64,000 bases of DNA, taken from Patescibacteria group bacterium. Lineage in GTDB: Bacteria > Patescibacteriota > Patescibacteriia > UBA2591 > UBA4787. Below, piece by piece: positions 32,201 to 47,823 of the stretch. A model generated the notes under the pieces. It was not told where the DNA came from, made no database searches, and saw only the letters and a program-made list of their open reading frames with translations. Positions within the stretch are counted from its first letter, which is position 1. The number at the start of each line of letters is the position of its first letter. The stretch lies in assembly GCA_028715115.1 (NCBI GenBank), contig JAQUSN010000002.1, forward strand, positions 68,944 to 132,943, written 5' to 3'. Both the position numbers and the translations under genes were made by a program.

Positions 32201-34293
32201 CCAATCAGATCGGTGATTATTATTCAAAAGTTAATTTCTGTGAAGATGCCAACGGAGATGGTTGCCAATGTTTTTATCAAAAAGCAGAATATGGTAATAA
32301 GTTAGCTACTAAATATTTTAATCTAGATACCGACTTAACCGCTAAAAAGGTCTGTACTCAGGGTGATCCTGGTATGTTGGGGAAATTATGCGATAATCTT
32401 GATAAATGTGGGCCAGACCCGGAAGATGGACAGCCAGATGTGCGCCGTTGTGAAGAACCATCTAATATTATTAAAAATTACGGTCAAAGAGACTTTTGCT
32501 TGGAGCCTGATTTAACTAAATTAGACAAGGTTAATGCATGTTTAACCTGGTGGCCGGCTAATGGCAGTATTGGTGATTCGGACATTAATAATATGTTCCA
32601 AAGCGCGGGTTATTTCCCGAGTACAAGCCGACAATGGTATTGTGTGGGGAATACGACTACACCGTCTTCTTTAAGTGGCGTTGGTTTTTTCCCAGATCAA
32701 CAAGACGCCGTAAATACTTGCGGGCATGGTTATATTAACAGAAATCCATATTATTATTCACGAAACCCGGATCAATACAAAGGATTTAAGCTAACTTCAG
32801 GAAGCTATACATGGACGTGGCCCGTTACAAATAATCAAAGTTTTGGCAGTCAAGCTTTCACCTATTGGCACACCGGCATACAAAATATTACTTTAGGAAT
32901 GATAAGCGGTGTTTCAGCAACTGTTTGCGGTGATTTTGGTGGTACAAATACTAAATGCGGCGCTTGCGGCGATATTGGTGGTGGTTCTGGGGGAGTCAAA
33001 CCTCTTACTTGGGATAGCGTAAGTAATTGTTTCGTTTATCAACAAGCTGCTAGACCTCAAGACAGTACTCCATCGGGAGCTACGCCAGAAGAGTTTATTT
33101 TTAAGGTTTGTTTTAATGGTAGTTCGGTTGATTCTAGATTAATTAAGGCAGAATTAAATTTGAATAATGCTGGTAATACTTTTGGCGATGCCCTTTGGGG
33201 ATTGATTGAAGATGTAGGGTTTGATTTTAAAAGCGGATGTTCAACCATTGCCAGAATAGCAAGTAATGGCGATACCAAAGCCTATACCAATAAGATAAAT
33301 AGCATGGATGAAAATAAAAATTATACCGGACAAGGGGTAGACAATAAAACAGACGTTAATCAATGTAAGCCTTGGGGCGCAGTAAACTATAATTCGGATA
33401 AAACTAATTTTATTAATACTAATACTGCCGGCACTTGCTGGATGCAACAGGTAGCAAGTGATTCGATTTATTCTAACCGCGATGTTCTAGAGAATAATTT
33501 ATTTGCTAAAAGTTTCGAGATATATACTTATGACAGAAATACTTTTAGCTATGTATCTTCTTCGGGAGATGATCGGACGGATATTAATTCTAATTCTACT
33601 AAGGCGCCGAAAGTTGCCGCGGTTTGTTTTAATCAGCAAAATGGCTCTTCGTCAATTTGTCGCGATGGCAACAACAACCCCATTGCCGGTTTAACAATTG
33701 GTAATACTTATAATCTGAATATTGTTCGAGAACAAGCTTATTATGCGGCGATAAAATTTTATGCTTGGGCTGACGCAAATCAAATGCCAGTTCGCGAAAT
33801 AGCTATAGATTGGACCGGTGGGAGTAGGCCCTCTATCTTTGACAACAACAGCATTATTGCTAAAAATCATAAAGATGCTTGTCCAACAAAATGTATGCGA
33901 GATGGTTTTTGTAGGGACAAAAATAATAATAAAGTTAGTTGTGATAGTATTGATGCGATAGTTTGCAATAATATTAATGATTGTCCTGCTGGTGGTGTGG
34001 GGCAAGGGCCTGCGACTTGCGAAATAACTAATTTTGGAGATTCATATGATGCTTGCGCGACTCAATTTTGGCAGTTTAATCATCTTTATATTTGTACCAA
34101 AGATAGTGATTATTATGATCCGCAACGAGGGGCCTGCATTTTTAAGCCCAGGGTTTTCGTAAGAGACAATTGGGGTTGGTGTAGTGGTGGAGTTTATGTC
34201 GGGAACACTCCTTGTACTAGTACTCCTGGAATATCTTTTGCCAAAGAAATAATAATTTATCCACCTAGCACTAGCGGTCAGCAACAAGAGTAA
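26278..34293 (+). CDS. giant (2671 aa) secreted Cys-rich surface protein with two CBM-like beta-sandwich modules; putative adhesin of the downstream T4SS-like system
   Basis: Single uninterrupted ORF with an N-terminal signal/TM. Recurrent G-C-E/R-x-F/Y Cys-rich repeats. Two galactose-binding-like modules (about 28800..29280 and 30210..30650). Stop is 3 nt before the VirB6-like gene. Confidence 0.6.
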   Translation: MQLKKNFQFKIITGAVLLTIFCSIFTPVLFYPQVAKAQWVVTNPHDFVKDILEKIGEALKTAGYVAYRNSLNLVLGQMAQQSAEYLATGTPGQKPMFLSSSKYWLDLGDSVLGDFIDTTAKSGGFLNQSLCDPIDPTIRFQMLVSLDPKYQKMTWNSEARCSLSQIAERAREMGKQKLIDFDVNLTEGPVGGYKSDLGTIILGDGQLSPTQKKLLYGTVDNKGNFTYKGVIGNLIDIQDEFSAFIKAEVNNQVTPGADIIKMTIERLSSKLDADILHESGPTGAKWWHNYAVTCLGYDKKENYCSDVNCVTYFCDTTQSGCSNNFEQCTLRTQRVNDYAKKIIDWAMSLKQMMNEINPDDFQPPAAASLEDLSKMFNPEGSSVGVALSLNSSLFDKQTTAVENSKFWQLLQGRINDVTSAISGLTKTPSTLVSETARQSVVEGTASIKTVTGVALADAVGVFTNTLINKMIKNVIYGTGLNPELNPDLSNNLTGGGFSAPGQKEARAMFSDLSTVVLKRGDKLDILSELSACPTDSKYALPNNCTIDSGLVRAAEASMTIKDAIDQGFLHGDWVVGGYNVKDTNRDYATRYSLNNIKKMRRNRIMPVGLEIAAQKINRGELEDAKITLSRIVNEFNKVNDSGNCDGGTASPFCHLVDPNWVVKAPEMKCKTVAYSAIPMANSNQRQEICIDMQDCIHENDRGECDTYAYCTKEKNIWRMGGDICESQNATCQTYTRVRDGQQFSYLNNTLDFSGCDQNNAGCKWYCDRFTKGLAANGENTWACKEPGISLRKVGTQWTDDSDPSNHLFFNNKVSLCSSTAEGCSQFIRLSNNSGVNILANGSFEIYPSTQTFPATTVDGWMAKTNSGTLHSQFINDGGLARTGNIVAGIDSARDDWGGVKLAVGSNLASFLVDNNSYLISIWVNNKDLNRSHNIHLFVSTNSGWKSLYNKIIPRNSGWQRLIYPFVYRVGDGYNFNNLSWEVANDTGAQGLVYFDDLQLEPGTSVSSYKDYGAVNQSYFKKAPDFMKCYNRYSDGTLNTSDDDLNCSNYVLACKKNEAGCEMYRPINGDPSLPAVARDADRCPAECSGYQIFKESATNFSSGVLAVNLIPSTARTCVANETGCEEFTNLDQFSQGGEGKEYYNSIRPCRKPDDGCSYFYTWVGSDTSGYQLKRYYLQKRGVIKQGEAGLGPDEFLSDFDALKLWGECNSEDDIFSNPRCKQFFDNSGNSYLRLYENTISCSNDCHPLRKTTAVTQEFCQTTTQSGVTIPGMSYSNGICTYMAIPSEGTTCNRVNVGCREYKGNAAENIRQIFLEDFESGVGDWKVAPQNALIRSSTDSIYAGGHSAQVINSNKVATTISKDVSNEITVGKEYQLSLWVKGITGDISFGITGNQVSSPINVGDVNDWRLITFSPYYISTLPTGTIEIAIQATPNLRSDVAPVTYSFVIDNILLKEAQSSLYLIKDSWTTPQVCDKNEQGQNMPGFMIGCAAYKDTENADNYFKTFSYLCSEKSVGCEAMIETHNSSNPFAQSFNDDKYTVPADSIEYLINDGKKTCAAADKGCERFGLPSLSASNQGGQITYKVTGWTDKYLKNDPDLYTQKPILCSDNGMACEEFMAKGSNTSVYFKDPGDKACEYKAKISETDEYGWYKQGTNEPCYSDSPVNGFYKIKKTTDNNYLGFAGLCPSSQSSCTKFTDPLDNKSYYYLNNSKLDKSSCQGVSQKEGCILINDTNQSAKTYSSKATYNKSKDKQYAAVGPINCEVQADCSNPENLETDFCKYCKICVNGTNTGGSCLNDGGCPGGFCQQILNNDSNTIVKVQRDRTCGEWLSCAGGQMVWDKSANEYKNQCTSLIRCQGLVGSGDEERCSNFILDTPQQLTESLYKSRNVSWADMDYSGYSLYEFYPVDTLTPYNYGTSDQPDYKLTYKDNIQDHGVNNLTCSSTQSCPTGMDCQTGHCVIPKTCQAYPEQDSPFISANQIGDYYSKVNFCEDANGDGCQCFYQKAEYGNKLATKYFNLDTDLTAKKVCTQGDPGMLGKLCDNLDKCGPDPEDGQPDVRRCEEPSNIIKNYGQRDFCLEPDLTKLDKVNACLTWWPANGSIGDSDINNMFQSAGYFPSTSRQWYCVGNTTTPSSLSGVGFFPDQQDAVNTCGHGYINRNPYYYSRNPDQYKGFKLTSGSYTWTWPVTNNQSFGSQAFTYWHTGIQNITLGMISGVSATVCGDFGGTNTKCGACGDIGGGSGGVKPLTWDSVSNCFVYQQAARPQDSTPSGATPEEFIFKVCFNGSSVDSRLIKAELNLNNAGNTFGDALWGLIEDVGFDFKSGCSTIARIASNGDTKAYTNKINSMDENKNYTGQGVDNKTDVNQCKPWGAVNYNSDKTNFINTNTAGTCWMQQVASDSIYSNRDVLENNLFAKSFEIYTYDRNTFSYVSSSGDDRTDINSNSTKAPKVAAVCFNQQNGSSSICRDGNNNPIAGLTIGNTYNLNIVREQAYYAAIKFYAWADANQMPVREIAIDWTGGSRPSIFDNNSIIAKNHKDACPTKCMRDGFCRDKNNNKVSCDSIDAIVCNNINDCPAGGVGQGPATCEITNFGDSYDACATQFWQFNHLYICTKDSDYYDPQRGACIFKPRVFVRDNWGWCSGGVYVGNTPCTSTPGISFAKEIIIYPPSTSGQQQE

Positions 34294-34296
34294 ATT

Positions 34297-37155
34297 ATGA
34301 AGTTTAACTGGATAAAAAAAATCAACTTCCGCAAAGGGCTGATAATTTTATTAGTTGCCGTTTTTGTTTTGTCCATTTTACCTCGCGTCATTAATGCAGC
34401 CGACTCCGCCGAGCCAGCCGATCAATCTTCAGTTAATAGTATAGAACATCTTTCTCTAACCGTTAGCGGATTGATAACTAGCGCAGTGGTAGCGGCAATT
34501 GGTAAATTAATGGTCGTGGTTATTCGAGTTTTGGTCAGCTTGGCTCAGTATAATGATTTTCTGAAGTCGCCAGTAGTTGATATAGGCTGGAGACTGATTC
34601 GTGATCTTTGCAACATGCTATTTATAGTAATTCTTTTGGTAATTGCTTTTGCGACAGTATTACAGAGAGAACAATATTCTTATAAAAGAATGTTGGGCGC
34701 GCTGGTTCTGGCGGCGGTGTTGGTTAATTTTTCGAAATTAATCTGCGGAGTTATTATTGATTTTTCGCAAGTAGTCATGTTGACCTTTGTCAACGCGATA
34801 AAAGACGCGGCCGAAGGCAACTTTGCCGAATTGATTGGTATTAAGCAGCTTCTTTCCATGACGGCAGATCCTAGTAAACCTTTGACTATAAATTCTTTTG
34901 AATTATCAGTTACTTATTTATTGGCTTTAATTTTTTCTATTGTCGGTTTAGTTATCTTTATTGTTGTTACGGTAATAGTTCTTTTAAGAATAATTATACT
35001 TTGGTTTTTGGTCATGCTTTCACCGGTTGCTTTTATCGCCACAATTTTGCCGCGAACTAATGCTTATGCAAGTCGATGGTGGGATAAGTTTACCAATCAA
35101 GTAATCGTGGGCCCGGTTTTAATGATTTTTATTTGGTTATCGCTATCTATTGTTCAACAAAGTATGAATGACGGAGGTATGTTAAACCATTTAAAGATGG
35201 GAAGTTCTTTACAAAAAACTACTGATTTATTAGGAAATGCCGTGGGCGTGAATAATAATGCAATAGCAGCGGGCGTGGCCGATATTGGTCAGGCGCCTAA
35301 TGTTTTAGGATTTATGGTCGGTATTGCTTTGTTGGTTGGATCGGTGGCTATGGCTCAAGAATTGTCTGCCGCTGGATCTGGTATGGCCATGAACGCGGTT
35401 AATAAAATGAAACAAATCGGCGCCGGCGCTGCGGCTATGCCAGGTAGGTTGGGCGGCAAGGCCTTAAAAGCCGTAGGTCAAAGCGCCGTGGAACGATTTG
35501 AGGCAAAAACGGGTATACCTATTCAACCTAAACACTACAGAGCTGCTTGGGAGAATCGTAAAAGAATAGTACGCGGTCAAAGAGCCGCTCAAATGATGGA
35601 GAAAATGGAGGGGCATCGATTCCTTCGTCCGCCAACGGAATTCGTTAATAATATGTTTTCTACAAAAGGATGGAAAGCTGGCGTTCAGAGAATGTTTGGA
35701 GTTGATGTAGTTAAAAGAAATCAAGCTGCTGAGCTTAATAGACAGCTTGAAGAGCAAAGAGCTAAAATAAACGGAAGATTTACCAGCGATGAAATCGCTA
35801 AGAGCATTACTCAATTAGGAGGCGAGACAGGAGAAGAAGGAGAAATAGGCATGTTAGCAAGAGAACTAGAAGTCTATAAGAGTAAGTTAACCGAAGAAGA
35901 CCGAACTAAATTAGCAAAGGGAGAAAAAATAGAGGAGAAAAAACAGGCTAAAATTGATCAATTGACAGATTTAATTGATTTAAAACGAGCCCGACTGGAG
36001 GAGTTTGAAAACTATAATAGCCAAGCATGGAGAGAACAAAAAGCAAAAGAAGCTGGGGAAGCCGGGGCACAACTTGAGGGAAAAAGAGCAGAACTAAAAG
36101 CCGCAGAAGCCGAGGAAAACCCAGATCAAGCAGATCAAGAAAAAATTAAACAATTAAGAAGAGAAATCGATACATTAGAAGCCCATAAACAGCAGCTTGA
36201 CTTAGAGGCAAATATTATTATAACTCCGGAGCAAAAAGAGCAGGTTTCGGCCGAATTAGCGAAAATAGGTAAGAAATTTGGCGTTAAGATTGACGAGGCA
36301 GACGAAAAGAATCTCCAAAAACAATTAAGAGATTTATCAACGAAAAGAGATAAATTGCGCGTTGAAGGAGAGGTTATTATGCCTACCAGCATGCCATATG
36401 AAGATCAGGCCACGATAAACGCCGCTATATCTCAAGAATCGAAAAATTTACAAGGCATAGAGGATGCTGATGAGTTAGTTACTTTATATCAGGTAGCCAA
36501 AGATAAAAAAGATTTAATTAAAATGAGAGCTATTATTTTGAAATTGACCGAAAATAGAGACTTAAATGAATTACTGGATAAATTGGGGCATGAACAAAAT
36601 TATAAGGGACTTCAAGAATTAATCGAAGAAGATTTTGTTAAGCATATTGGCGGTTCGGCACAAGCGCATTATTCTTTTGGAAACGACGTTACGATGTTGA
36701 ATAAACATGAGGCGGCCTTTGAATTTAGTGGCGCCTATATAAGGGGTACTAATGGAAAATTAAGGACTACTACCGACAAGGAACACAGAAACTTTGTTTT
36801 AATAGAATCAGGTAAGCGAGACAGAGAAACCTTGTTTCGTAAAGATTGGTGGGGGTGGTTAATAGGCAAGCGAGTTGATCCGAATACTGGCAAACGAGTC
36901 CCGATTTGGACTCAAACGATTGAGCAGATCGTTAGAAGGGATTTAGGTATGTTAAAAACAGAGATAGATAAGTCTAGGCTTAATTCCGAGTTAGAATCAT
37001 GTTTCTCCCATCCAGAATTTATAGCTCATTTTCAGGATTTGCAGCAACGGTTTGTTGAAGAGGGCAGAAAGGGCGCAGTTGAACAGATAAAGGGAGTTAT
37101 TAAACACTTGCAGATGAAACAAGGCCAATATTGGCCGACTATAGAAGAAAAATAA
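34297..37155 (+). CDS. VirB6/TrbL/PrgH-like polytopic membrane protein with long charged coiled-coil C-terminal domain
   Basis: Signal peptide (..RVINA/ADS). At least 6 TM helices in the first about 330 aa. About 600-aa E/K-rich C-terminal extension. Position immediately upstream of VirB3/VirB4-like genes. Confidence 0.5.
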   Translation: MKFNWIKKINFRKGLIILLVAVFVLSILPRVINAADSAEPADQSSVNSIEHLSLTVSGLITSAVVAAIGKLMVVVIRVLVSLAQYNDFLKSPVVDIGWRLIRDLCNMLFIVILLVIAFATVLQREQYSYKRMLGALVLAAVLVNFSKLICGVIIDFSQVVMLTFVNAIKDAAEGNFAELIGIKQLLSMTADPSKPLTINSFELSVTYLLALIFSIVGLVIFIVVTVIVLLRIIILWFLVMLSPVAFIATILPRTNAYASRWWDKFTNQVIVGPVLMIFIWLSLSIVQQSMNDGGMLNHLKMGSSLQKTTDLLGNAVGVNNNAIAAGVADIGQAPNVLGFMVGIALLVGSVAMAQELSAAGSGMAMNAVNKMKQIGAGAAAMPGRLGGKALKAVGQSAVERFEAKTGIPIQPKHYRAAWENRKRIVRGQRAAQMMEKMEGHRFLRPPTEFVNNMFSTKGWKAGVQRMFGVDVVKRNQAAELNRQLEEQRAKINGRFTSDEIAKSITQLGGETGEEGEIGMLARELEVYKSKLTEEDRTKLAKGEKIEEKKQAKIDQLTDLIDLKRARLEEFENYNSQAWREQKAKEAGEAGAQLEGKRAELKAAEAEENPDQADQEKIKQLRREIDTLEAHKQQLDLEANIIITPEQKEQVSAELAKIGKKFGVKIDEADEKNLQKQLRDLSTKRDKLRVEGEVIMPTSMPYEDQATINAAISQESKNLQGIEDADELVTLYQVAKDKKDLIKMRAIILKLTENRDLNELLDKLGHEQNYKGLQELIEEDFVKHIGGSAQAHYSFGNDVTMLNKHEAAFEFSGAYIRGTNGKLRTTTDKEHRNFVLIESGKRDRETLFRKDWWGWLIGKRVDPNTGKRVPIWTQTIEQIVRRDLGMLKTEIDKSRLNSELESCFSHPEFIAHFQDLQQRFVEEGRKGAVEQIKGVIKHLQMKQGQYWPTIEEK

Positions 37156-37175
37156 TTTCGTATTTTATATAAATC

Positions 37176-39293
37176 ATGGCCTCCGAATTAATTAATTCTG
37201 AAAAATTAAATCAGCTGAAAAGGGAACTTTTTTTAGATGAAGGTTTTTATAATGGTTTAATTAAAAAATACCGTCAGAATCAAAAATTATTAGAAGATTT
37301 TTTGAAACAAAATCCTAGTTTAAGCAATATTGATCCCAGATTTTTTCAGGAAGTTCAGGATATGCTATTAATGTTAAAATGGTATTCATTTAATTATTTA
37401 ACCGACCAAGAAATCATAGAGATGTTTAGGAATCATGTTAGTGTCGTTCTAAATGATGATACTTTCCCGATTGAAGAAGCGCTGAAAATAGCTTTCTTGG
37501 GTATGTCGATATTAAACGATCGCGACGTTCTAAAGAAGCAAATTAAGGAAGCTTTATTGCAGAATAAGGAAAAAATAACCAGTCAATTAATTAAATTAAA
37601 AGATTCCAGCGTTGAGGGAACGATTGGCAATTGGTTACAGTTATATAATTCGGTTGTTGGGGTTGAGCTGGTTGATAGTTTAAAATTAGCAGAATTTTTT
37701 GTTAAAAATAAAAATTTTACGGCCCTAATGGATTTAGAGGCCGGAAAAATTAAAAAACTATTAGCTCTTTATGAAAAACTAAAATTATCATCCTTAACCC
37801 CTGAGGGCCTAGAAGAGGAAGAATTAGAAGAGGCCGGAGAAGGTCGTGTAATTTTAATGACCGGAACCGGCGCTAAAGAAGTTTATGATATCGAGGGAGA
37901 CAAAAAAGAAGGACTCGTAAAAGAAGAGCTATTAACGCCAGAAACAAAAGCAGCTATAGCCGTTGCCTCGCCGTCAACAATAAAGGAAAATTTAGTGGTT
38001 ACACCTATAGTTAATCAAGCTAAAGAGTTCGTTAAAGATTTGGAAAATATGAATTTGCCAAATTCATCCGAATTTACAAATAATGTTATCTCGACAAAAA
38101 CAGAACCTGATTTTGAAAAAATAATTCAAAATATCGTTGGACAGGCCGGCCTGTCTTTTACCGACGAGAATCTAAAGACCAGGTTTATTGGTCTCATTAC
38201 TTCTTATTTAAAAGGCGTACGAAAAGAATTAGACTTACGCGACGCTTTAATGCGCGGTGAAAAAGTGGGCGGTATGGGTTATGATCAACAAAAAATTACG
38301 GCAATTATGAATATTTTAGCCGGTAGCCGGATCGAAGAAAAAGAAAGCATGCAAAAAGAAACTACCAAACCAGCCCTAGCCGAAGGATTAACTTCGCCGA
38401 TAGAAATTATTAATCCAGTAACGCCTGATTTATCTAGAGAGCCAGGCAAATTATTAGAAGAAGGAGAAGACGCTTTATTAACTGGATCGACGCAAAAGAC
38501 ATCAGACAATATAGAAGTGCAACAAGAAAAATTTTCTTCAGGTTCGCTTGCGCCCGTTGTTGATGATAGTAAAATACCGGAAAACGTTTCTTCGTCTTTT
38601 GAAAATATAGTAACATCCGAAGAAGAGCCGATTAAACAGCCTCCGGCAGAAGATTTTTTGGCAAAATTTGACTTGTCGTCGGCATTTGGTTCTGATAAAA
38701 CCGAAGAAGCCGATCAGGGAATAAAATCACAAGAAGCAAGCGATATGAACATTGATGCTTCGATTGAAGATTTGAATTCCCAACTAGCTGCTAATAATGT
38801 TTTACCGACAGAAGAGGCTAAGCCAACAGAACTTGTCGAGCCCGCGTCTATTTCGGAACCAGAGCAGAAAATTGTCGAGCCCTCAGATGGTGCTATTAAA
38901 AATATCTATCGTGCTCCGGAGCCGGAAGAAGCGCCTCAGCCGCCCATAGAAGAGGTCAGGGTAACCCCAAGAGCCTATGGCCCGGTTGACGAGCTTAGAA
39001 GTCTAACCTTAGAAGATTGGCGACGTTGGGGAGGTGTGGGTGAAGCAGTAAAACTTATTTTAGATAAAATTAATTTATTAGCAGAAGAATCTTTGACTAA
39101 AAAATCTGAAGGCATCGCCGCCTGGAAAGGCTCAGAAATAAACAAAATGTATTTGGATATAGGTACCGAGGCAATTAATAATGGATTGTCGGTTGAGCAA
39201 GCTATTGAAAAAAGGAAAAGTGCTAATTTACCGACTTTAACCATTGACGAATTTAATGCTATTTCGGAAATAAATCAAAAACTACGTTTTTAA
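37176..39293 (+). CDS. hypothetical acidic protein (T4SS-cluster accessory)
   Basis: 705 aa, no TM, with an E/P/S-rich low-complexity central region. Sits within the operon. Confidence 0.4.
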   Translation: MASELINSEKLNQLKRELFLDEGFYNGLIKKYRQNQKLLEDFLKQNPSLSNIDPRFFQEVQDMLLMLKWYSFNYLTDQEIIEMFRNHVSVVLNDDTFPIEEALKIAFLGMSILNDRDVLKKQIKEALLQNKEKITSQLIKLKDSSVEGTIGNWLQLYNSVVGVELVDSLKLAEFFVKNKNFTALMDLEAGKIKKLLALYEKLKLSSLTPEGLEEEELEEAGEGRVILMTGTGAKEVYDIEGDKKEGLVKEELLTPETKAAIAVASPSTIKENLVVTPIVNQAKEFVKDLENMNLPNSSEFTNNVISTKTEPDFEKIIQNIVGQAGLSFTDENLKTRFIGLITSYLKGVRKELDLRDALMRGEKVGGMGYDQQKITAIMNILAGSRIEEKESMQKETTKPALAEGLTSPIEIINPVTPDLSREPGKLLEEGEDALLTGSTQKTSDNIEVQQEKFSSGSLAPVVDDSKIPENVSSSFENIVTSEEEPIKQPPAEDFLAKFDLSSAFGSDKTEEADQGIKSQEASDMNIDASIEDLNSQLAANNVLPTEEAKPTELVEPASISEPEQKIVEPSDGAIKNIYRAPEPEEAPQPPIEEVRVTPRAYGPVDELRSLTLEDWRRWGGVGEAVKLILDKINLLAEESLTKKSEGIAAWKGSEINKMYLDIGTEAINNGLSVEQAIEKRKSANLPTLTIDEFNAISEINQKLRF

Positions 39294-39368
39294 CCCTACC
39301 ACTAAACTACTAAAACTGGCGTAAAATTCAGGAGAATAGGGTATTTTAATTCGTAATTTGTAGTAGTA

Positions 39369-39788
39369 ATGCAGTTTATTGTTCCTCAATTTATCGACAT
39401 TGAACCTAAAATTATCGGGCCGGTTACGCCACGGCAGTTTATTATTTTAATTATTACCGGTGCGTTTATTTTTGTCGCTTATAAATTATCTGATTTTTCT
39501 TTATTTATTATCGAAGCGGTAGCTTTATTAGGCCTAGGAGGGACTCTAGCTTTTTTGAAAATAAACGGCCAACCGGTTCACTATTTTTTATTAAACTTAA
39601 CCCAGACTTTTAAACGACCAATGTTAAGAATTTGGAGAAAAGATTTTATTATGGCAAAAGAATTAGCGGTTAAAGAAAAAGTAAAGATAGCGCCGGTAGC
39701 TATTCCGCGTAAAACGCTTTCTAATGCCCGGCTTTCAAATTTATCAATTTTAGTTGATACGGGCGGAATGTATCATGAGGAGGTTTGA
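39369..39788 (+). CDS. VirB3/PrgI-like small two-TM T4SS protein
   Basis: 139 aa. Two TM helices around PRQFIILIITGAFIFVAYKL and FIIEAVALLGLGGTLAFL. Directly precedes the VirB4 N-domain, as PrgI precedes PrgJ. Confidence 0.45.
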   Translation: MQFIVPQFIDIEPKIIGPVTPRQFIILIITGAFIFVAYKLSDFSLFIIEAVALLGLGGTLAFLKINGQPVHYFLLNLTQTFKRPMLRIWRKDFIMAKELAVKEKVKIAPVAIPRKTLSNARLSNLSILVDTGGMYHEEV

Positions 39789-39799
39789 TTTAAATTTTT

Positions 39800-40468
39800 A
39801 TGAGTAAAACTGCAGCCATTTCATCAACACAAAAATATTTAGACATCTCCGAGGTGCGAAGTGATTGTATTATTTTAAAAGACGGAACCATGCGAGCCGT
39901 GCTTTTGGTTTCTTCAATCAACTTTTCCTTAAAGTCAGAGGACGAGCAAAAGGCGACCGTTTCGGCTTATGTTCAATTTTTAAATACCTTGGAGCACCCC
40001 TTACAAATAATAATCCAGTCTCGTCGCCTGAATATCGAGAATTATTTAGTTGACCTAAATACCCGCCAAAAAGAGCAAACCAACAATTTATTAAAAGCTC
40101 AAATGGCCGAATATATTGATTTTATAAAAGAATTAGTCGATTTGGGAGAAATAATGACCAAGAAATTTTATGTTGTCGTGCCCTACAGTCCTATGGGTGA
40201 TAAAAAATTAAAATTTTTCTCCCGCCTATCGAGCGCTTTTACGGCCGGATCAGCTATTAGACTGAAGCGCGAGCGATTTGAGGCCTATCGAGAGCAATTA
40301 TTTAGAAGAGTTGATAATGTTAGTTCGGCGTTGTCGAGCATGGGGTTAAGAGTCGTGCCACTTGATACTCAAAGTTTAATTGAATTATTATATAATAGTT
40401 ACAATCCGGTCGAATCGGCAGTTCAAAAATTAGCCGAAATAAATAAGCTTAACATCGAAACGATTTAA
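39800..40468 (+). CDS. VirB4/TraE/PrgJ N-terminal domain, separate ORF ending in an in-frame TAA
   Basis: LDISEVRSDCIILKDGTMRAVLLVSSINFSLKSEDEQKATVSAYVQFLNTLEHPLQIIIQSRRLNIENYL matches the CagE/TrbE/VirB4 N-terminal pattern. Same reading frame as the next ORF. Confidence 0.55.
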   Translation: MSKTAAISSTQKYLDISEVRSDCIILKDGTMRAVLLVSSINFSLKSEDEQKATVSAYVQFLNTLEHPLQIIIQSRRLNIENYLVDLNTRQKEQTNNLLKAQMAEYIDFIKELVDLGEIMTKKFYVVVPYSPMGDKKLKFFSRLSSAFTAGSAIRLKRERFEAYREQLFRRVDNVSSALSSMGLRVVPLDTQSLIELLYNSYNPVESAVQKLAEINKLNIETI

Positions 40469-40471
40469 TTT

Positions 40472-42442
40472 ATGGCTATTCGTCCATCAGCTATTAATCG
40501 CGCCACTGCAATGCCAGAGAAGAAACCGACTCCTCAACAAAAGGAGCAGGTTAAAATTGTTCAAGAAAAGCAAATAAAAAATCTTTTAGATTCGGAAGAG
40601 GCATATTTAAAGGGACTAATGTCGGTTCGCGACTTGATTGCGCCGGCCGCGCTTAAGGTTAATCCTTCCTTTTTGCAATTAGGAGATAAATATATTAGAA
40701 CGCTTTTCGTGACCGCTTATCCTCGTTATATTTCTGTAGGTTGGTTTGCGCCAGTAATAAATTTTAATGCTTCTCTTGATGTGGCCATGTTTTTCTATCC
40801 GGTTAATTCGGGTGTGGTTTTGAAACAACTGCAAAAGAGAGTGGGCAATATTGAAGCGGAATTATCAGCTGAGCGTGATAAAGGGATGCCTCGAGATCCG
40901 ATTAAAGAGACCGCTTTACAAGATATTGAGAAGCTTCGCGACGACCTAACGACGGGAGTAGAACATTATTTTCAATTTGCTCTTTATGTAACCATGTATG
41001 CGAATTCATTGAAAGACCTTGATTCAATGACGGAAAAAATAGAAGCGCTATTCGGTTCAAAATTGATTTACACCAGACAAGTATTTTACCAAGCCGAACA
41101 AGGATTTAATTCGACCTTGCCTTTAGCTAGCGACGAGCTGATGGTGACCTTTAACATGAGTTCTTCTCCCTGTGCCTCATCTTTTCCTTTTATCTCCGCT
41201 GACGTTACTTCAGATACCGGGATTTTATATGGTATTAACAGGCACAACAATGGCCTGATTATCTTTGATAGATTTAGTATGCAGAATGCTAATATGAATG
41301 TTTTTGCTACTAGTGGCGCTGGCAAAAGCTACGCTATTAAGCTCGAGGTTTTGCGCTCAATGATGTTTGGCACCGATGTAATTATTATTGACCCAGAAAG
41401 AGAATATAAATATTTATCAGATGCCGTAGGAGGAACATATGTGAATATTTCTTTATCTTCGGATAGCAAAATTAATCCTTTTGATTTGCCCAGGGCTACT
41501 TCGGCCGATATGACTGCAGCTGACATAATTCGTTCGGCAGTTATTACTATTAAAGGATTGTTAAGAATTATGATTGGCAAGACCGACGAAAGAGGAACAA
41601 AGCAGTTTTCGCCGGAAGAGGATTCAATTATTGATCGCGCTCTACTTGAGACTTATGCTAAAAGAGATATTACGCCATCTGCTGACTTAAGCCAAATTAC
41701 TGAAATGCCGACCATGTCTGATTTGCAAAATATTTTAGAGGGCATGGAGGGCGGGGCCCAGTTGTCAGAAAGGCTGAAAAAGTATACCGAAGGCACCTTT
41801 GCCGGACTATTAAATAATCCGACCAACGTTAAAGTTAATAATCAATTAATAGTTTTTTCGGTTCGCGACTTAGAAGATGAGCTTCGGCCGATAGCTATTT
41901 ATACTATTGTCAATTATATTTGGAACATCGTCCGTTCTGAACTTAAAAAAAGAATTCTCGTCATTGATGAGGCTTGGTGGTTAATGCAGCAAGAGGATTC
42001 GGCAAAATTTATTTATGCTTTAGTCAAACGTTGCCGAAAATATTATCTAGGTGTGACTACGATCACTCAAGACGTTAACGATTTTTTGGTTTCTCCTTAT
42101 GGCAAAGCTATTGTAAATAACTCGGCGCTGCAACTTTTATTAAAACAAGCTCCGGCGGCGATTGATTTAGTGGCGCAAACATTCATGTTAACCGAAGGAG
42201 AAAAATATTTACTATTAGAGTGCGGGGTAGGTGAAGGGATTTTTTTCGCTGGCGCCAAACACGCAGCCATTAAGATTATTGCTTCGTACTCCGAAGATCA
42301 ATTAATTACTTCTGATCCGCGGCAAATCTTAGAAATCGAACAGGCCAAAAGGGAGTTTTCTCAAAAAGAGGCTGGCGATGCCGTGGTTGATCAGGGCGGG
42401 CAAAAAGAATTTGTTAAGGGTGTTGGTGATTTAGAAATTTAA
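40472..42442 (+). CDS. VirB4/TraE/PrgJ-family T4SS ATPase, C-terminal ATPase domain
   Basis: Walker A ATSGAGKSY. IIDPEREYKYL..GGTYVNISL...INPFDL. Walker B RILVIDEAWW. This is the canonical VirB4 motif series. Confidence 0.85.
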   Translation: MAIRPSAINRATAMPEKKPTPQQKEQVKIVQEKQIKNLLDSEEAYLKGLMSVRDLIAPAALKVNPSFLQLGDKYIRTLFVTAYPRYISVGWFAPVINFNASLDVAMFFYPVNSGVVLKQLQKRVGNIEAELSAERDKGMPRDPIKETALQDIEKLRDDLTTGVEHYFQFALYVTMYANSLKDLDSMTEKIEALFGSKLIYTRQVFYQAEQGFNSTLPLASDELMVTFNMSSSPCASSFPFISADVTSDTGILYGINRHNNGLIIFDRFSMQNANMNVFATSGAGKSYAIKLEVLRSMMFGTDVIIIDPEREYKYLSDAVGGTYVNISLSSDSKINPFDLPRATSADMTAADIIRSAVITIKGLLRIMIGKTDERGTKQFSPEEDSIIDRALLETYAKRDITPSADLSQITEMPTMSDLQNILEGMEGGAQLSERLKKYTEGTFAGLLNNPTNVKVNNQLIVFSVRDLEDELRPIAIYTIVNYIWNIVRSELKKRILVIDEAWWLMQQEDSAKFIYALVKRCRKYYLGVTTITQDVNDFLVSPYGKAIVNNSALQLLLKQAPAAIDLVAQTFMLTEGEKYLLLECGVGEGIFFAGAKHAAIKIIASYSEDQLITSDPRQILEIEQAKREFSQKEAGDAVVDQGGQKEFVKGVGDLEI

Positions 42443-42456
42443 TATAAAATTATTTT

Positions 42457-43020
42457 ATGAAAAAAGTAATCATCATTATTATCATTATACTTATAATCGG
42501 CGTTATTTTTTATTATTTAAATTGGCGCGGCAAAAACACCGCAAATCCTTTAATCCCAAGTAACAACCAGACCCAAATTAATGAACAGAACAATGATTTT
42601 ACGAATGAGGGCCAAACTGACAATACGCCCGTAGACCCAACTGCTAAATTAGAAAACGATTTAACCGTGATGGCTCGCGCTTTTATTGAACAATACGGCT
42701 CATGGTCAAACCAATCTACCTTTTCCAATTTTACAGACCTTTATCCTTATATGACTAGCTCATTAATGGCGCAAACTCAAAACCTAGTTAACCAGAAAAT
42801 AGCCGAAAAAAAATTATCCTTGAGTTATTATGGCATTACTACCAAAATATTATCTTTAGAATTGAAAAATTTGGCCGAGCCGACTGGCGAATTTTTTGCC
42901 AATATCCAACAACAAGAAACAAAAGGCGACACTACTACGGTTTTATACAAAACAGTAAAATTGGTTTTATTAAAAGAAGGGTCTCAATGGAAGGTCAATG
43001 ACATCATTTTTAATCCATAA
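42457..43020 (+). CDS. N-terminally anchored secreted protein, possible VirB8/PrgL/TcpC-like (NTF2-like) T4SS component
   Basis: One N-terminal TM, then a domain of about 140 aa ending ..EGSQWKVNDIIFNP. Size and position after VirB4 fit PrgL-like proteins. No diagnostic motif. Confidence 0.3.
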   Translation: MKKVIIIIIIILIIGVIFYYLNWRGKNTANPLIPSNNQTQINEQNNDFTNEGQTDNTPVDPTAKLENDLTVMARAFIEQYGSWSNQSTFSNFTDLYPYMTSSLMAQTQNLVNQKIAEKKLSLSYYGITTKILSLELKNLAEPTGEFFANIQQQETKGDTTTVLYKTVKLVLLKEGSQWKVNDIIFNP

Positions 43021-43031
43021 TTTTATTAATT

Positions 43032-43985
43032 ATGGGTGACTTTGTTGATCCAAAAATAAGAGAGGAAATAGAACGAAAGGATGCTTCGGATGCTGAAAAA
43101 TATAATCTTGACACTTCTGATCCTGACTATCTAGCTGCTCAAAAGCGCGGCAGAGGAGAAGATGAAGAATTTGAAGAATCAATTAGGCAAATAAAAGAGC
43201 AACGCCAAGCCAGGGAATTAAAACAACAAAGACTTAAAGAAGCTTCTAGTCGAAAAGCAGCAATAAATCGACAAGTGCAAACTCCCGAAATGCAACAGAC
43301 ATATCGGGACTTCAAAGATCATAAAGGTTACTCTGATTTTAGTGAAGAAAGAGCCAGGGCCAGAGACAATAAAGAATATATGAATAAGGCCCGTGCATTA
43401 TCTAACGTTGCCGTTGACGCAGCGGCAACAAGCATAAAGCGAGGCGATATTAAAGGAGCCATCACTGCTGGCCTAAAGGCTGCCGGAGAGATGGGAGGTC
43501 AAATAGCAACTGCCAAAATTTTGCAGTTCATGTGGGAAAATTTTTATTATGTGTTGCCAATATTTTATATAGATTTTCATTTTATAATGCGGTATATTGC
43601 TGGCTCTAAGTTGTTTTGTCGCCTAGGACAGGAATGGCTTATGAAAGGCAGTGGTAAGGCTGCTTCTGGAGCGCAAAAAGCATCAACAGCCGAACAAGGG
43701 TTAGAGGCGGCAAAATCTTCTACAACGGGAGCACAAGCGACTGCAGGACAAACAAGCGGAGATTTAAACAAGCTAGCTGATCAAATCGCCGAAGCCCCTA
43801 ATAAATTTTTGGAAATTATCGAAATCGCTGCTTTAATGGTTTGTAATTTGATAATTGGCGCTGCAATTTATTTAATCCTGATATATATTTTTATCATGAC
43901 TCATCCTTGCCAGTCAGCGGCTATTGTTACTCATTCCGAGGGCATTTTGAAGGCCTTTAAAAGTATTGGTATTAATTGTAAATAA
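43032..43985 (+). CDS. hypothetical protein, charged N-terminus and hydrophobic C-terminal segments (T4SS-cluster accessory)
   Basis: 317 aa. C-terminal TM-like IIEIAALMVCNLIIGAAIYLILIYIFIM. Overlaps the next ORF. Confidence 0.35.
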   Translation: MGDFVDPKIREEIERKDASDAEKYNLDTSDPDYLAAQKRGRGEDEEFEESIRQIKEQRQARELKQQRLKEASSRKAAINRQVQTPEMQQTYRDFKDHKGYSDFSEERARARDNKEYMNKARALSNVAVDAAATSIKRGDIKGAITAGLKAAGEMGGQIATAKILQFMWENFYYVLPIFYIDFHFIMRYIAGSKLFCRLGQEWLMKGSGKAASGAQKASTAEQGLEAAKSSTTGAQATAGQTSGDLNKLADQIAEAPNKFLEIIEIAALMVCNLIIGAAIYLILIYIFIMTHPCQSAAIVTHSEGILKAFKSIGINCK

Positions 43986-45207
43986 TTGTATGTTAATTAA
44001 TAAAAACATTCTCGGCATATTTATCTTTATTCTTTTATTGTTTGTTTTTTTAATTGGCGGCGCTCATATTATTAAGGCGCAAACTACTTTCACCCCCTCG
44101 GTCGGGATAGGAGATAGTAATTTTCAAGCTGGTTCGGGCGTAGAAATTACAGGACTATCAATAGCTGATTATATTATTGCCGTTTATAAATGGTCAATTA
44201 GGGTTATCGCGATTTTAGCCGTTATTGTTATCATGGTGGCTGGCTTTCGTTGGGTTAGCGCTGCCGGAAATGCATCAGTAATCGGCCAAGCGAAGAATCA
44301 GATGATCGATGCATTTATCGGATTAATTTTAGTGATTGGCGCTAATTTATTGTTATATTTTATTAATCCGGCCTTGGTGAGGTTTAACGATCTTTCAATA
44401 ACGCACATAAAGAAGGTTAGTTTGGATAATTATGATTTTCCGATAGAGCAAGCCATTATGCCTAATATCTGGGACGAAAGCGAAAAACAGCCAAATATTA
44501 AGGCTAGCGCCTGTGGAATACAGGCCGTGGATCAGGAAGATGGGAGAACTTATCTTGGGGTCAAATGTTCGTCGGCCGGAGTGCCGGGTGCTTCCATTAG
44601 GAAGCCTTGTGTTTTACAATTTAGTTTAACATCACAGGACTATCAAGATGATATTAATAAAAAAGCAGATATAGCCGAATATTTGGCAGATATTTATTAT
44701 CTTGGCAAAGATTCTGGTTATAACGTAGAGTCTGGTTGTATTAGTAGGGGGTCGGTATTTAAATACATGATCCCGATTTACGGATTAATTGAGGCAGCGA
44801 CTACGACGTATGGGAAGGTAAGTTTGCCCTTCAGAGATGATCCAACCGTAATGTACGATTTTGCTCTTGATCCATCAACTAATTGCGGCGTTAAAAAAGG
44901 AGAAGGAGATATTATAAAAAATAAGATTGGGATGAAAGTTGGGATAAAATGTCCTAATTCGAATTCAACGTGTGTCTTTGCTCTGGTTAATGTTACTGAT
45001 GATAAAATAAATAAGACTGCCGTTAAATTTTATAGTTTTTGTAAACCAGATAGCGGAATGCCTATGTGTGAACCAAGTGAGAGAAGAGTAAATTGTGAAA
45101 GATATACTAATTGTAAAGTATCAGGATGCACAAATGAGATAGACGCATCCGGAAAATCAATTTGTTGCCAGCAGGCAGTTGATAGGGCGGTTTTGAGGAA
45201 TTTTTAG
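43966..45207 (+). CDS. pilin-like (VirB2/TrbC-type two-TM hairpin) module fused to Cys-rich extracellular domain; paralog of the N-terminal module of the 46510 protein
   Basis: Module YIIAVYKWSIRVIAILAVIVIMVAGFRWVSAAGNASVIGQAKNQMIDAFIGLILVIGANLLLYFINP (about 44160..44390). A likelier start is the ATG at 43990, just after the upstream stop. Confidence 0.5.
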   Translation: MVLIVNNCMLINKNILGIFIFILLLFVFLIGGAHIIKAQTTFTPSVGIGDSNFQAGSGVEITGLSIADYIIAVYKWSIRVIAILAVIVIMVAGFRWVSAAGNASVIGQAKNQMIDAFIGLILVIGANLLLYFINPALVRFNDLSITHIKKVSLDNYDFPIEQAIMPNIWDESEKQPNIKASACGIQAVDQEDGRTYLGVKCSSAGVPGASIRKPCVLQFSLTSQDYQDDINKKADIAEYLADIYYLGKDSGYNVESGCISRGSVFKYMIPIYGLIEAATTTYGKVSLPFRDDPTVMYDFALDPSTNCGVKKGEGDIIKNKIGMKVGIKCPNSNSTCVFALVNVTDDKINKTAVKFYSFCKPDSGMPMCEPSERRVNCERYTNCKVSGCTNEIDASGKSICCQQAVDRAVLRNF

Positions 45208-45225: not shown

Positions 45226-46506
45226 ATGAATAAAAGAATACTATTGATAGTTTTGTTTTTTGTGGCGGTTATAGCCATAGCTTTGGTTTTGTATTTTTTT
45301 ATTTTTAGGACCAATATTTCCGCGCCGCCGATTAATGAGGCGCAAAACTTAATCAACGAGCAAACCGGCAAATTGCCAGTAAGTCGTGAACAATGGGAGG
45401 GCATGACTATAAATGAGCGGGCTAGCGCCAATTTACCTTTATACGAATGGCAGGAAGCGGCGCCTGCTCAATCTTCAGAAGCACAGCCGGTAGTTTTGCA
45501 AGTCTCTGAGATAGCCAACGGCGGTAAAACCATTATTAATCCTGTTTCCAATGATTCGGCGCAAAGTGCCACATTGTCTTTCGATGGACAAAATAGCTTA
45601 TTCTATAACTCAACTGATGGTAAATTCTATCAGGTAGATAAGAACGGCATTAAAACGTCTTTAAGCAATCAAGTTTTTCATAATGTCAGTAATGTTAATT
45701 GGGCGCCAAATAAGGACAGAGCGATTATCGAATATCCCGATGGCTTTAAAATAATGTATGATTTTAAAAATCAGAAACAATACACCCTGCCGAACAATTG
45801 GGAAGACTTTTCTTGGGATTCTCGCGGGAATCAAATTGTTTTCAAGGCTACTTCGCAATATTCACAAAATAATTGGTTAGCCGTAGCTAATTCCGATGGA
45901 ACCGGGGCGAGGGCCATAGAAAATATGGGTGATAACGGCGATAAGGTTACCGTCTCCTGGTCGCCCAATAATCAAGTCGTTGCTTTTTCGGCTACTGGTC
46001 AAGCGCAATCAGCTTGGCAGCAAGAGGTTTTATTAATCGGCCAAAATGGAGAAAATTTTAAATCTTTGATTATCGATGGCCGTGGTTTTGAAACTCAATG
46101 GAATCCGCGAGGCGATAGCATAGCTTATAGTGTTTATAGTGCCGACAGCGGCTATAAACCAACATTATATTTAGTAAAAGCGCAGGGAGATGAAATCGGT
46201 AACGATAAAATTAACACAGGCCTTAACACCTGGTCTCATAAATGCGCTTATAATTCTAGCGGCAGTTATCTTTTTTGCGCCGTTCCTAAAAGTTTACCAG
46301 AGGGGTCGGGGATGATGAGCGAGTTAGCTACTAATCTGCAAGATAATTTTTATAAAATTAACGCCATTACCGGCGAAAAGACATTTTTAGCCGAAGGAGC
46401 AATGGGTGGTTATGATGTTTCCCAGCTATTTATTTCGGGAGACGATGGTACGTTATATTTTATTGATAAAAATTCAGGAATATTAAGATACATAAAATTA
46501 AGATAG
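45226..46506 (+). CDS. TolB-like beta-propeller protein with N-terminal TM anchor
   Basis: Repeating blade motifs WAPNKDRAI, FSWDSRGNQIVF, VSWSPNNQVVAF, TQWNPRGDSIAY. Confidence 0.5.
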   Translation: MNKRILLIVLFFVAVIAIALVLYFFIFRTNISAPPINEAQNLINEQTGKLPVSREQWEGMTINERASANLPLYEWQEAAPAQSSEAQPVVLQVSEIANGGKTIINPVSNDSAQSATLSFDGQNSLFYNSTDGKFYQVDKNGIKTSLSNQVFHNVSNVNWAPNKDRAIIEYPDGFKIMYDFKNQKQYTLPNNWEDFSWDSRGNQIVFKATSQYSQNNWLAVANSDGTGARAIENMGDNGDKVTVSWSPNNQVVAFSATGQAQSAWQQEVLLIGQNGENFKSLIIDGRGFETQWNPRGDSIAYSVYSADSGYKPTLYLVKAQGDEIGNDKINTGLNTWSHKCAYNSSGSYLFCAVPKSLPEGSGMMSELATNLQDNFYKINAITGEKTFLAEGAMGGYDVSQLFISGDDGTLYFIDKNSGILRYIKLR

Positions 46507-46509
46507 ATT

Positions 46510-47823
46510 GTGATCAATTTTTTCTTAAAAAATAGATTTTTTAGAACTTCCAAGCTCGGTTATCTCTTGGTGGTTTTTGTCTTAATGGGTTTTTTGTTTT
46601 TTTTATTTCAAAACGTGCTGGCTATTAGCTGTTGCTATGGTTCTAATATCGAGCCAAGGTGCAAAGATATTACTACTGGATTTTGTCCACTGCCATATAC
46701 CATGCAGGCGAAAGATACTACTTGCGCTAATTGTACTGATTGTTTTTGCCAGGGCAGCTTCGCGCCAGCCGATGCTACTGATCCTGTGCCAACAAAAAAT
46801 ACAGAACAAAAAACTCCAGATATTATCCCTACTCTTCAAGTTCAAATTCCCGGTTTTTCTGGATTTTCCAAAGATATCCAAGTTTGTTTAGAGGAGGGCA
46901 AGACTTTAGACGAGTGTCAAAAGGGCAAAACAGGCTATTCAATTCCATGGATAGGGGAATATTTAATCGCTGTTTATAAATGGGCGGTTAGAGCTATCGC
47001 TATTTTGGCCGTGATAATTATTATGTGGGGCGGGTTGCAGTGGATATTAGCTCGTGGCAATTCCTCGGCCATTACGGAAGCTAAATCAAAAATAAGTTCA
47101 GCTTTGATCGGCATAGTAATTATCGTTGGTATGAATGTTTTTTTGTCGGCTATTAACCCCAATTTAACAATCTTAAAACCTATTACCCTGGGCAAGATTG
47201 AACCAATAATTATCACTCCATTAGATTCAGACAAAGAAGAGGGCGGTATTAGTGGTCCTAATGCCGGTACCAGCATAGATATGGGGGGCAATTGTTTTCC
47301 TGTTAGTGCGGATAGCATCAAACAAACCCAATGGAATTTTGGTAATAGCCGTAGTAGCGGCAAACGTTGTCATGCTGGCATTGATATTTTAACCAATTGG
47401 CGGTCGGGTAATGATAGTGTAGTGGCTATAGGGGACGGTCGCGTTTTGGCTGTTTACGGTTTTTATACTTGTAGTACCGAAACCGGTAAGGGTGGACACG
47501 TTAGTGCAATTTTTATTGATCACAAAAAATTAAATTATACAGTTTTATATGGTGAAGTAGATGATGATAGTATTCTGGTAAAAAATGGAGATGAAGTGAG
47601 GGCTGGTCAACTTTTAGGCCAAGCAAGCCGTTGTGGGATGTTACACCTTGAAATGTATGAAGCCGGTGCCAGAGGAAATAAAACATGGTATCCTCCAAAT
47701 GGACAAAGAGTTGAGAATCAACCTAATTATTGCCAACAAAATTTTTTAAATACAAAGCCGTCAACATTATTGGACCCAACGGCCACTTTAAAATATTTAG
47801 ATGGCAAAAGATGTAGTATTTAA
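46510..47823 (+). CDS. pilin-like module fused to M23 (LytM-type) peptidase domain; putative cell-wall hydrolase of the T4SS-like system
   Basis: N-terminal TM plus a Cys-rich segment. Module YLIAVYKWAVRAIAILAVIIIMWGGLQWILARGNSSAITEAKSKISSALIGIVIIVGMNVFLSAINP. M23 core HAGIDI ... GGHVSAIFIDH ... GMLHLEMYE (HxxxD present; second motif reads HLE rather than HxH). Confidence 0.55.
   Translation: MINFFLKNRFFRTSKLGYLLVVFVLMGFLFFLFQNVLAISCCYGSNIEPRCKDITTGFCPLPYTMQAKDTTCANCTDCFCQGSFAPADATDPVPTKNTEQKTPDIIPTLQVQIPGFSGFSKDIQVCLEEGKTLDECQKGKTGYSIPWIGEYLIAVYKWAVRAIAILAVIIIMWGGLQWILARGNSSAITEAKSKISSALIGIVIIVGMNVFLSAINPNLTILKPITLGKIEPIIITPLDSDKEEGGISGPNAGTSIDMGGNCFPVSADSIKQTQWNFGNSRSSGKRCHAGIDILTNWRSGNDSVVAIGDGRVLAVYGFYTCSTETGKGGHVSAIFIDHKKLNYTVLYGEVDDDSILVKNGDEVRAGQLLGQASRCGMLHLEMYEAGARGNKTWYPPNGQRVENQPNYCQQNFLNTKPSTLLDPTATLKYLDGKRCSI

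Follow-up and report, generated by a model that had tools for sequence, protein, structure and literature searches.

The gene that closes a type IV secretion system (T4SS) block in a 64,000-nucleotide stretch of patescibacterial DNA (positions 1-64000, here called the window) raises the question of what a peptidase-like domain is doing on a protein of the secretion apparatus, and whether that domain is still an enzyme. The open reading frame (ORF) occupies 46510..47823 on the + strand, begins with GTG and encodes 437 aa plus a stop codon. A Pfam scan of the neighbouring genes shows it to be the final gene of a co-directional T4SS block of monoderm type, and other Patescibacteria have homologues with 36-44% identity, surrounded by genes in the same order. 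Judged by its sequence, the protein is a variant of the M23 peptidases, with Glu and Met at two catalytic positions, that is mounted on a T4SS pilin module in episymbiotic bacteria. An earlier description made from the letters alone, referred to below as the sequence-only reading, had delimited the ORF exactly, and the strings it quoted occur in the translation: aa 288-292 read HAGID, aa 336-338 IDH and aa 376-384 GMLHLEMYE. It had also placed the gene in a T4SS cluster, at the end of which the gene does sit, after VirB6-like, PrgI, TraC-like and VirB4 genes. Its assignment of an M23/LytM domain was borne out too, while its view of the active site has to be revised.

The C-terminal domain (aa 256-437; 47275..47820, + strand) is, according to its predicted structure and to profile comparison, a genuine M23/LytM fold. 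Pfam Peptidase_M23 (PF01551) matches aa 288-386 with a score of 33.3 bits (curated cut-off 28.7; E=5.7e-8), and the family hidden Markov model (HMM) matches the domain with E=1.7e-84. A family profile of 37 sequences matches 40-odd solved M23/LytM chains, the best with E=2e-11, and HHalign aligns the family profile to a small canonical M23 profile with a probability of 99.1%. The AlphaFold2 (AF2) model of aa 249-437 has a mean predicted local distance difference test score (pLDDT) of 92.9 and a predicted template modelling score of 0.88. The top 42 Foldseek matches of this model in the PDB are all M23/LytM proteins at a probability of 1.00, and they include lysostaphin, LytM, Csd1-3, ShyA, EnpA, LysTt72, DipM, the LytM domain of PrgK and LECT2. 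The sequence-only reading would have given up its assignment had structure prediction failed to yield this fold, and the fold was recovered. A PDB search with the single C-terminal sequence had returned mostly spurious DARPin matches and one weak, mis-registered TagE alignment, and was superseded by the profile searches.

Which residues then form the active site? H288-A-G-I-D292 (47371..47385, + strand) aligns to the canonical HxxxD motif, which provides zinc ligands. M377-L-H379-L-E381 (47638..47652, + strand) is the equivalent of canonical H-L-H-F-E, with M377-L-H379 on H-x-H and L380-E381 on the following [FYL]-E in the alignments to TagE (5j1l), Csd3 (4rny), LysTt72 (8s3m), 9gy1 and zoocin A (5kvp). 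HHalign gives the same register as these five PDB-chain HMM alignments, and LysTt72, which reads S-H-L-H-L-E, bridges the canonical and the variant form of the motif. The predicted strand 377-384 begins at M377, as the strand of canonical enzymes begins at the first His. In all alignments H379 is the second His of HxH, that is the zinc-ligand position, E381 is the ordinary conserved Glu that follows the motif, and the position of the first, water-activating His is taken by Met377. What supports this mapping is the agreement among the profile alignments together with the start of the predicted strand at M377, rather than metal-site geometry. As reviewed for M23 peptidases, the first His of HxH does not bind the metal but is proposed to activate the water, and a second His about 30 residues upstream also adjoins the water (H260 in LytM, H329 in lysostaphin, H78 in EnpA and H81 in LasA) (PMC9662197). 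The alignments match Glu349 of a Y-G-E triplet (Glu349 at 47554..47556, + strand) to this upstream catalytic His, which belongs to the 'Y-a-H' motif; H379 follows Glu349 at a distance of exactly 30 residues. The His of the 'GG.V.I.H' block, H338, which the sequence-only reading had counted among the pattern residues, is not the catalytic His and varies within the family (H 161, G 37). On this mapping all three residues of the zinc triad (H288, D292 and H379) are retained and would bind zinc, whereas E349 and M377 stand in for the two catalytic His that are not ligands.

The sequence-only reading had instead placed H-L-E on HxH with Glu in place of the second His, which makes H379 the catalytic first His and Glu381 the third zinc ligand. 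H379, E381 and Y383 do lie on one face of the predicted strand 377-384, which makes this register compatible with the geometry of the strand taken by itself, E381 is invariant, and Glu is a common zinc ligand. Against this register, both the five-chain HMM alignments and HHalign set L-H-[LF]-E on L-H-[FYL]-E, a shift of two positions; the LysTt72 sequence links the two forms of the motif, and the strand starts at M377, where the canonical first His would be. Even with the other register, E349 would still replace the second catalytic His. The idea of an HxE motif with Glu as a ligand is very probably wrong on these alignments, and we regard the register that it requires as highly improbable. 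Of the alignment check that the sequence-only reading had proposed against itself, one half turned out as feared, since its residue mapping was wrong, and the other did not, as no canonical HxH lies elsewhere. Its broader suspicion of a non-canonical active site holds, with E349 and M377 as the altered residues rather than Glu381 in the place of a ligand His.

The same residues recur throughout the family. Conservation was counted in 229 aligned family domains from the retrieved proteins, with the domains that have a residue at the given position as denominators. Position 288 is H in 217/218, position 292 is D in 216/218 and position 349 is E in 219/226; position 377 is M in 203 of ~226 and otherwise L, T, Q or I, never H. 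H379 is found in 222 and E381 in 220 of ~226, Y383 in 190 and W393 in 211. The full pattern (H,D / E / M,H,E) is present in 187/229 domains, the remainder being mostly fragments. Family members that lack E349 mostly lack M377 as well, and this joint loss suggests, at the level of sequence, that positions 349 and 377 are coupled. The resulting signature of the subfamily reads HxxxD ... Y-G-E ... M-L-H-[LF]-E-x-Y ... W ... LLDPT. The domain profile recovers 3323 clusters of 50% identity at E<=1e-3, 768 at E<=1e-10 and 94 at E<=1e-30. NCBIfam has no dedicated model for the protein, PHROGs offers only generic metallo-endopeptidase and endolysin families, and no description of a Glu/Met M23 variant was found in our literature search, which is absence of evidence from a limited literature set. 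The Glu/Met branch of M23 is a large, strictly conserved and undescribed subfamily. Its close clade, from candidate phyla radiation (CPR) and DPANN genomes, has six conserved Cys in the domain, consistent with an extracellular domain held by three probable disulfides.

Compared with canonical M23B enzymes (LytM, lysostaphin, zoocin A, Csd3, ShyA, LysTt72), the subfamily shares the fold, the HxxxD and terminal-His ligands, the FGxR, 'Y-x-x' and 'L-H-[FL]-E' blocks, and the frequent attachment of wall-binding modules. It differs from them in the replacement of His by Glu349 and of His by Met377, in a shorter Gly-rich loop before the last strand, and in a C-terminus about 50 residues longer that carries a conserved W393/DPT block, to which the CPR clade adds its three probable disulfides.

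Several observations concern the spread of the subfamily. The Cys-rich clade also occurs in loci labelled Woesearchaeota or Nanoarchaeota (L008, L010, L013, L014, L019), in proteins of 380-1067 aa that have no pilin module and combine the variant M23 with SLT+GDSL or with Hydrolase_2, so that this clade is common to both groups of ultrasmall episymbionts. More generally, large proteins of DPANN-labelled metagenome-assembled genomes (MAGs) carry the variant M23 with SLT+GDSL, Hydrolase_2, lipase or phosphoesterase domains. A distant branch consists of small proteins of 160-190 aa (P0038, P0041, P0046, P0057 and similar ones) in which the domain runs from the start and no obvious signal peptide is seen, and two of its members, P0050 and P0053, are fused to a NADAR domain. 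The chromosomal contexts of these small proteins gave no functional hint, and a location in the cytoplasm would be unexpected if the variant M23 were a wall hydrolase. Several loci with the typical patescibacterial pilin arrays, propeller and RadA (L005, L009, L016, L020, L011, L017, L021) are titled 'uncultured Gammaproteobacteria' or 'Methanosarcinales', and the titles look like wrong automatic MAG labels.

The second part of the question concerns the pilin module. It spans aa 141-228 (46930..47193, + strand) and consists of two long hydrophobic helices with the short basic loop ARGNSSAITEAKSK between them, as in VirB2-like T4SS pilins. Pfam T4SS_pilin (PF18895) matches residues 150-215 with 26.8 bits against a cut-off of 26.6, homologous modules in relatives reach 39 bits against the same model, and a custom HMM built from these homologous modules matches the protein with E=1e-42. 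Hydrophobic segments lie at 13-43, 151-183 and 193-221. The full-length AF2 model, which was used solely for helix and strand boundaries, has a helix at 16-37, a helical hairpin at 148-180/185-215 (pLDDT ~65-76) and disorder in the Cys-rich stretch 39-120 and in the linker 220-254. The N-terminus (aa 1-38; 46510..46623, + strand), a basic N-region and a hydrophobic helix ending VLA|IS, probably acts as a Sec signal peptide or a signal anchor, and its cleavage would presumably take place at that point. Between it and the pilin module extends a Cys-rich region with 10 Cys (aa 39-137; 46624..46920, + strand; pLDDT 25-50 in the full-length model), and between the pilin module and the M23 domain lies a flexible linker (aa 229-255; 47194..47274, + strand; pLDDT ~30), which is also the junction where relatives switch the enzyme domain. 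M23 and T4SS_pilin are the only Pfam domains in the ORF; no SLT, muramidase, CHAP or NlpC/P60 domain was matched. The layout is that of a VirB2-type pilin, a signal peptide followed by two hydrophobic helices with a short basic loop. The size is not that of the small single-module pilins (about 100-190 aa), as the protein has 437 aa with a Cys-rich N-region and a 180-aa enzyme-like head. The signal peptide and the basic inter-helix loop would place both termini of the hairpin extracellularly, the direction in which VirB2-type pilin termini face, and the Cys-rich N-region and the M23 head are predicted to lie outside the cell.

The fusion is recurrent. Among the 235 proteins retrieved, mostly representatives of 50%-identity clusters, ~46 have a pilin module 30-40 residues upstream of the variant M23. 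The conserved neighbourhood reads PrgI - TraC-like - VirB4 - p187 ... pilin - propeller - pilin-M23 - RadA, and its part from VirB4 to RadA is kept in L001, L003, L009, L016, L018 and L022 although identity is only 36-46%. These syntenic loci come from Buchananbacteria, Uhrbacteria, Parcubacteria and others, and their M23-domain matches have 29-46% identity to the domain of the window. The enzyme head is exchangeable. P0006, the closest relative of the N-terminal part, is 76% identical up to NPNLTILKPITLG and then continues into an unrelated VanY/M15-type domain, whereas the true M23 orthologues are only ~42% identical in their N-terminal half. Other pilin modules carry a 3D domain (P0007) or Peptidase_C39_2 (P0008), and the tandem-array neighbours of the pilin-M23 gene have M15_4, GDSL lipase (twice), C39_2 (twice) and a weak glucosaminidase match. 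On our reading, the protein belongs to a family of pilin-tethered envelope hydrolases whose heads can replace one another. The literature search turned up no report of a pilin fused to an enzyme, again an absence of evidence from a limited literature set.

This arrangement bears on whether the gene belongs to the secretion system at all. Downstream of it follow RadA, MreC, probable MreD, PBP2 and GyrB, and a housekeeping endopeptidase acting on the own wall, for which the radA-mreC-mreD-PBP2 context would be the meaningful one and the T4SS neighbourhood incidental, could be read from MreC, probable MreD and PBP2 lying at most 3 kb downstream on the same strand. M23 endopeptidases also commonly function in elongation (PMC9662197). 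Relatives, however, keep the gene with pilin, propeller and VirB4 genes and with RadA, while the genes past RadA differ among the loci (in L001 a cupin, RecG and enolase, and no Mre genes), which argues against a functional tie to the Mre and PBP2 genes of the window. The fusion to a T4SS pilin module and the exchange of the head for unrelated enzymes in close relatives also speak against a housekeeping role, which we hold to be improbable.

In described patescibacterial T4SS clusters, VirB2-like pilin arrays are essential and essential peptidase and lysozyme genes adjoin virB4; the pilins are small and divergent, and the peptidase and lysozyme genes are separate (PMC12102498, PMC10633639). 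The function of this T4SS was called completely unknown in 2024 (PMC11665869). The array of the window resembles the VirB2-like arrays of this group (SEML1_0014-0019 of S. epibionticum; 2-11 pilins) in the PF18895 tandem beside virB4 and in the low identity among paralogues. The described pilins have ~130-190 aa, whereas the protein of the window and its relatives have 350-660 aa with enzyme domains.

The sequence-only reading had likened the gene to the PrgK, CwlT and VirB1 hydrolases, and in its position the likeness is fair. Like the VirB1-type hydrolases of monoderms (PrgK of pCF10, TraG of pIP501, Orf14 of Tn916, CwlT of ICEBs1), it is a predicted membrane-anchored, extracellular protein of wall-hydrolase type encoded in a T4SS cluster. 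Unlike them, it has none of the SLT, muramidase, CHAP or NlpC/P60 domains in Pfam, it is anchored by a VirB2-like pilin hairpin, absent from those proteins, and its head is exchangeable between close relatives. The X-Tfes of Xanthomonadales, effectors of T4SSs that kill bacteria, offer another parallel, since they combine a constant module with a variable peptidoglycan peptidase (including M23), glycosidase, lytic transglycosylase or lipase and are encoded with a T4SS (PMC6536674). They differ in that VirD4 recognises their constant module, the secretion domain XVIPCD at the C-terminus; in the protein of the window the constant part is the pilin hairpin on the N-terminal side, the C-terminus is fully taken up by the M23 domain, and translocation is hypothetical. 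The M23 domain is plausibly the wall-cutting component of its cluster, and no second peptidoglycan-hydrolase domain was recognised in the T4SS cluster of the window by the Pfam scan.

Taken together, the domain and its carrier lead to a model of a cell-wall peptidase that is secreted, anchored to the membrane or the pilus and part of the patescibacterial (CPR) T4SS, a reading that we favour by a small degree. The signal peptide would export the N-terminus, the VirB2-like hairpin (aa 148-215) would span the membrane, its short basic loop facing the cytoplasm, and the flexible linker of ~30 residues would hold the M23-fold domain outside the cell. There Glu349 would act as a carboxylate general base and replace the His pair, Glu381 being a less likely candidate, and the domain would cut peptide bonds or cross-links of the peptidoglycan where the apparatus crosses the wall. 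The pilin module would recruit the enzyme to the T4SS, either as a membrane anchor beside the channel or as a minor pilin that is extracted by VirB4 and decorates the pilus. Zinc peptidases as a rule use a carboxylate as general base, and VanX, from the related LAS group, reportedly uses a Glu.

The domain might instead be a non-catalytic, zinc-containing LytM module that binds peptidoglycan or a partner, and so regulates or positions a hydrolase or docks the pilus. Both water-activating His are absent, and in EnpA the H109A variant, which lacks the first His of HxH, is inactive and was used for crystallography (PMC8269130). In the T4SS hydrolase PrgK the LytM domain is described as regulatory and not catalytic (PMC12857230), and LECT2, which has no peptidase function, retains zinc but lacks the catalytic His (PMC9662197). 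These findings weigh against an active enzyme and favour a binding module, and the EnpA result implies that activity without the first His would demand a rewired mechanism, which is hypothetical. EnpA had itself been considered as a natural 'AxH' precedent, from a PDB title that reads 'A109H mutant'; its wild type has His109 and H109A is inactive (PMC8269130), which counts against easy dispensability of that His. Several features of our own material count against the model as a whole: the closeness of Glu349 and Glu381 to the zinc site is predicted from alignment and not from geometry, the Pfam pilin match barely exceeds its cut-off, the full-length AF2 model is poor (pLDDT 58.4), and a head of ~200 residues on a pilin puts its polymerisation into a pilus in question.

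Degenerate LytM proteins (EnvC, NlpD, Csd2, DipM, the LytM domain of PrgK) and LECT2 do share the M23 fold and an incomplete catalytic set with the protein of the window, and the LytM domain of PrgK is likewise T4SS-associated. Domains of EnvC/NlpD type, a possibility that the sequence-only reading had raised, fit poorly, as they have lost the zinc ligands and show relaxed conservation of the active site, while here H288, D292 and H379 are invariant and the conservation of E349, M377, E381, Y383 and W393 is as strict as that of an active site. Since ligands and substituted positions alike are conserved in this manner, an enzyme is favoured over a degenerate LytM factor. In P0074 the variant M23 is the only catalytic-type domain beside two PG_binding_1 domains, and in P0018 it stands beside SH3_3; as the sole enzyme-type module next to wall-binding domains, it supports an enzymatic role. 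The same is suggested by its combination with SLT, GDSL, Hydrolase_2 or lipase domains in larger proteins and by the slot in the pilin array, which is otherwise held by ordinary hydrolase domains. With these points on the other side, the non-catalytic module appears unlikely, though it carries weight, and we incline moderately towards an active enzyme in which Glu349 would play the role of the His pair.

As to the substrate of such an enzyme, MreC and PBP2 in the window indicate that the organism makes peptidoglycan, so remodelling of its own wall is possible. The cassette-like swapping of heads and the accompanying lipases point to the host envelope as a candidate, and perhaps the likelier, target.

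The remainder of the block is consistent in its order with other loci. The T4SS core (34297..43985, + strand; Pfam, with the same order in loci L001 and L003) comprises a VirB6/TrbL-like protein (952 aa), a 705-aa protein, a PrgI/VirB3-like protein, a 222-aa TraC-like protein, VirB4, and proteins of 187 and 317 aa. VirB4 (40472-42442, + strand) has a TraG P-loop match (E=3.5e-28), and the 222-aa protein was assigned as TraC-like through the orthologous locus L001. No coupling protein (VirD4-like gene) was recognised in the T4SS cluster, and no amidase among the neighbouring genes scanned with Pfam. At the head of the block, a 2671-aa protein with a CBM_4_9 carbohydrate-binding domain in Pfam (26278-34293, + strand) may be a surface adhesin of giant size; in L001 and L003, too, large proteins lie upstream of the T4SS cluster.

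Two genes separate the core from the pilin-M23 gene. The first (43966..45207, + strand) encodes a paralogous pilin-module protein of 413 aa, with 25.6 bits against PF18895 and E=2e-31 against the custom pilin HMM. Its pilin module (aa ~71-147) is followed by a Cys-rich C-terminal domain of ~270 residues with no Pfam or NCBIfam match, which by analogy may be another unrecognised enzyme or adhesin head. The second, between both pilin genes (45226..46506, + strand), encodes a membrane-anchored TolB-like beta-propeller protein of 426 aa with a weak TIGR02800 match. Its orthologues adjoin the pilin-M23 gene in L001, L003, L009, L016, L018 and L022, across distant Patescibacteria, and partner, adhesin and immunity/inhibitor protein are all conceivable roles for it.

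On the other side, the start codon of radA (47801) lies inside the end of the pilin-M23 ORF, an overlap of 23 nt (47801-47823), and RadA follows the pilin-M23 gene in several relatives (L001, L002, L016, L022). The overlap and the retention of RadA suggest that radA, a DNA-repair gene, is co-transcribed with the T4SS/pilin block. Over the whole window nearly all ORFs of more than 120 aa are on the + strand, all 2-kb intervals have a positive GC skew, with a cumulative curve that climbs monotonically over the 64 kb; the stretch appears to lie on one replichore, with its genes co-oriented with replication.

The finding matters on two levels. For the M23 family, a site that keeps its metal ligands and has exchanged its catalytic His for Glu and Met fits neither the active HxH enzymes nor the zinc-less degenerate LytM factors. 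If active, it would represent a second catalytic solution on the M23 scaffold, and would change how 'M23' annotations are to be read in uncultivated lineages, including DPANN-labelled genomes. For the episymbionts, whose T4SS is essential for epibiotic growth in the one patescibacterial species tested, the fusions of pilin to interchangeable wall- and lipid-cutting domains provide a testable hypothesis for the role of the T4SS at the host surface. In its widest form, which we put forward as possible but rather doubtful, the pilin module of many Patescibacteria would be a delivery or display handle for polymorphic envelope-degrading enzymes (variant M23, M15/VanY, C39-like, 3D, glucosaminidase and GDSL lipases). 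Zinc peptidase activity would persist in the M23 variant, with Glu doing the work of the His pair, and a T4SS pilus or channel studded or tipped with such enzymes would open the host wall and membrane at the contact site. If true, this would amount to effector delivery by fusion to the pilin itself, and would give a concrete function to the essential and so far unexplained T4SS of these episymbionts.

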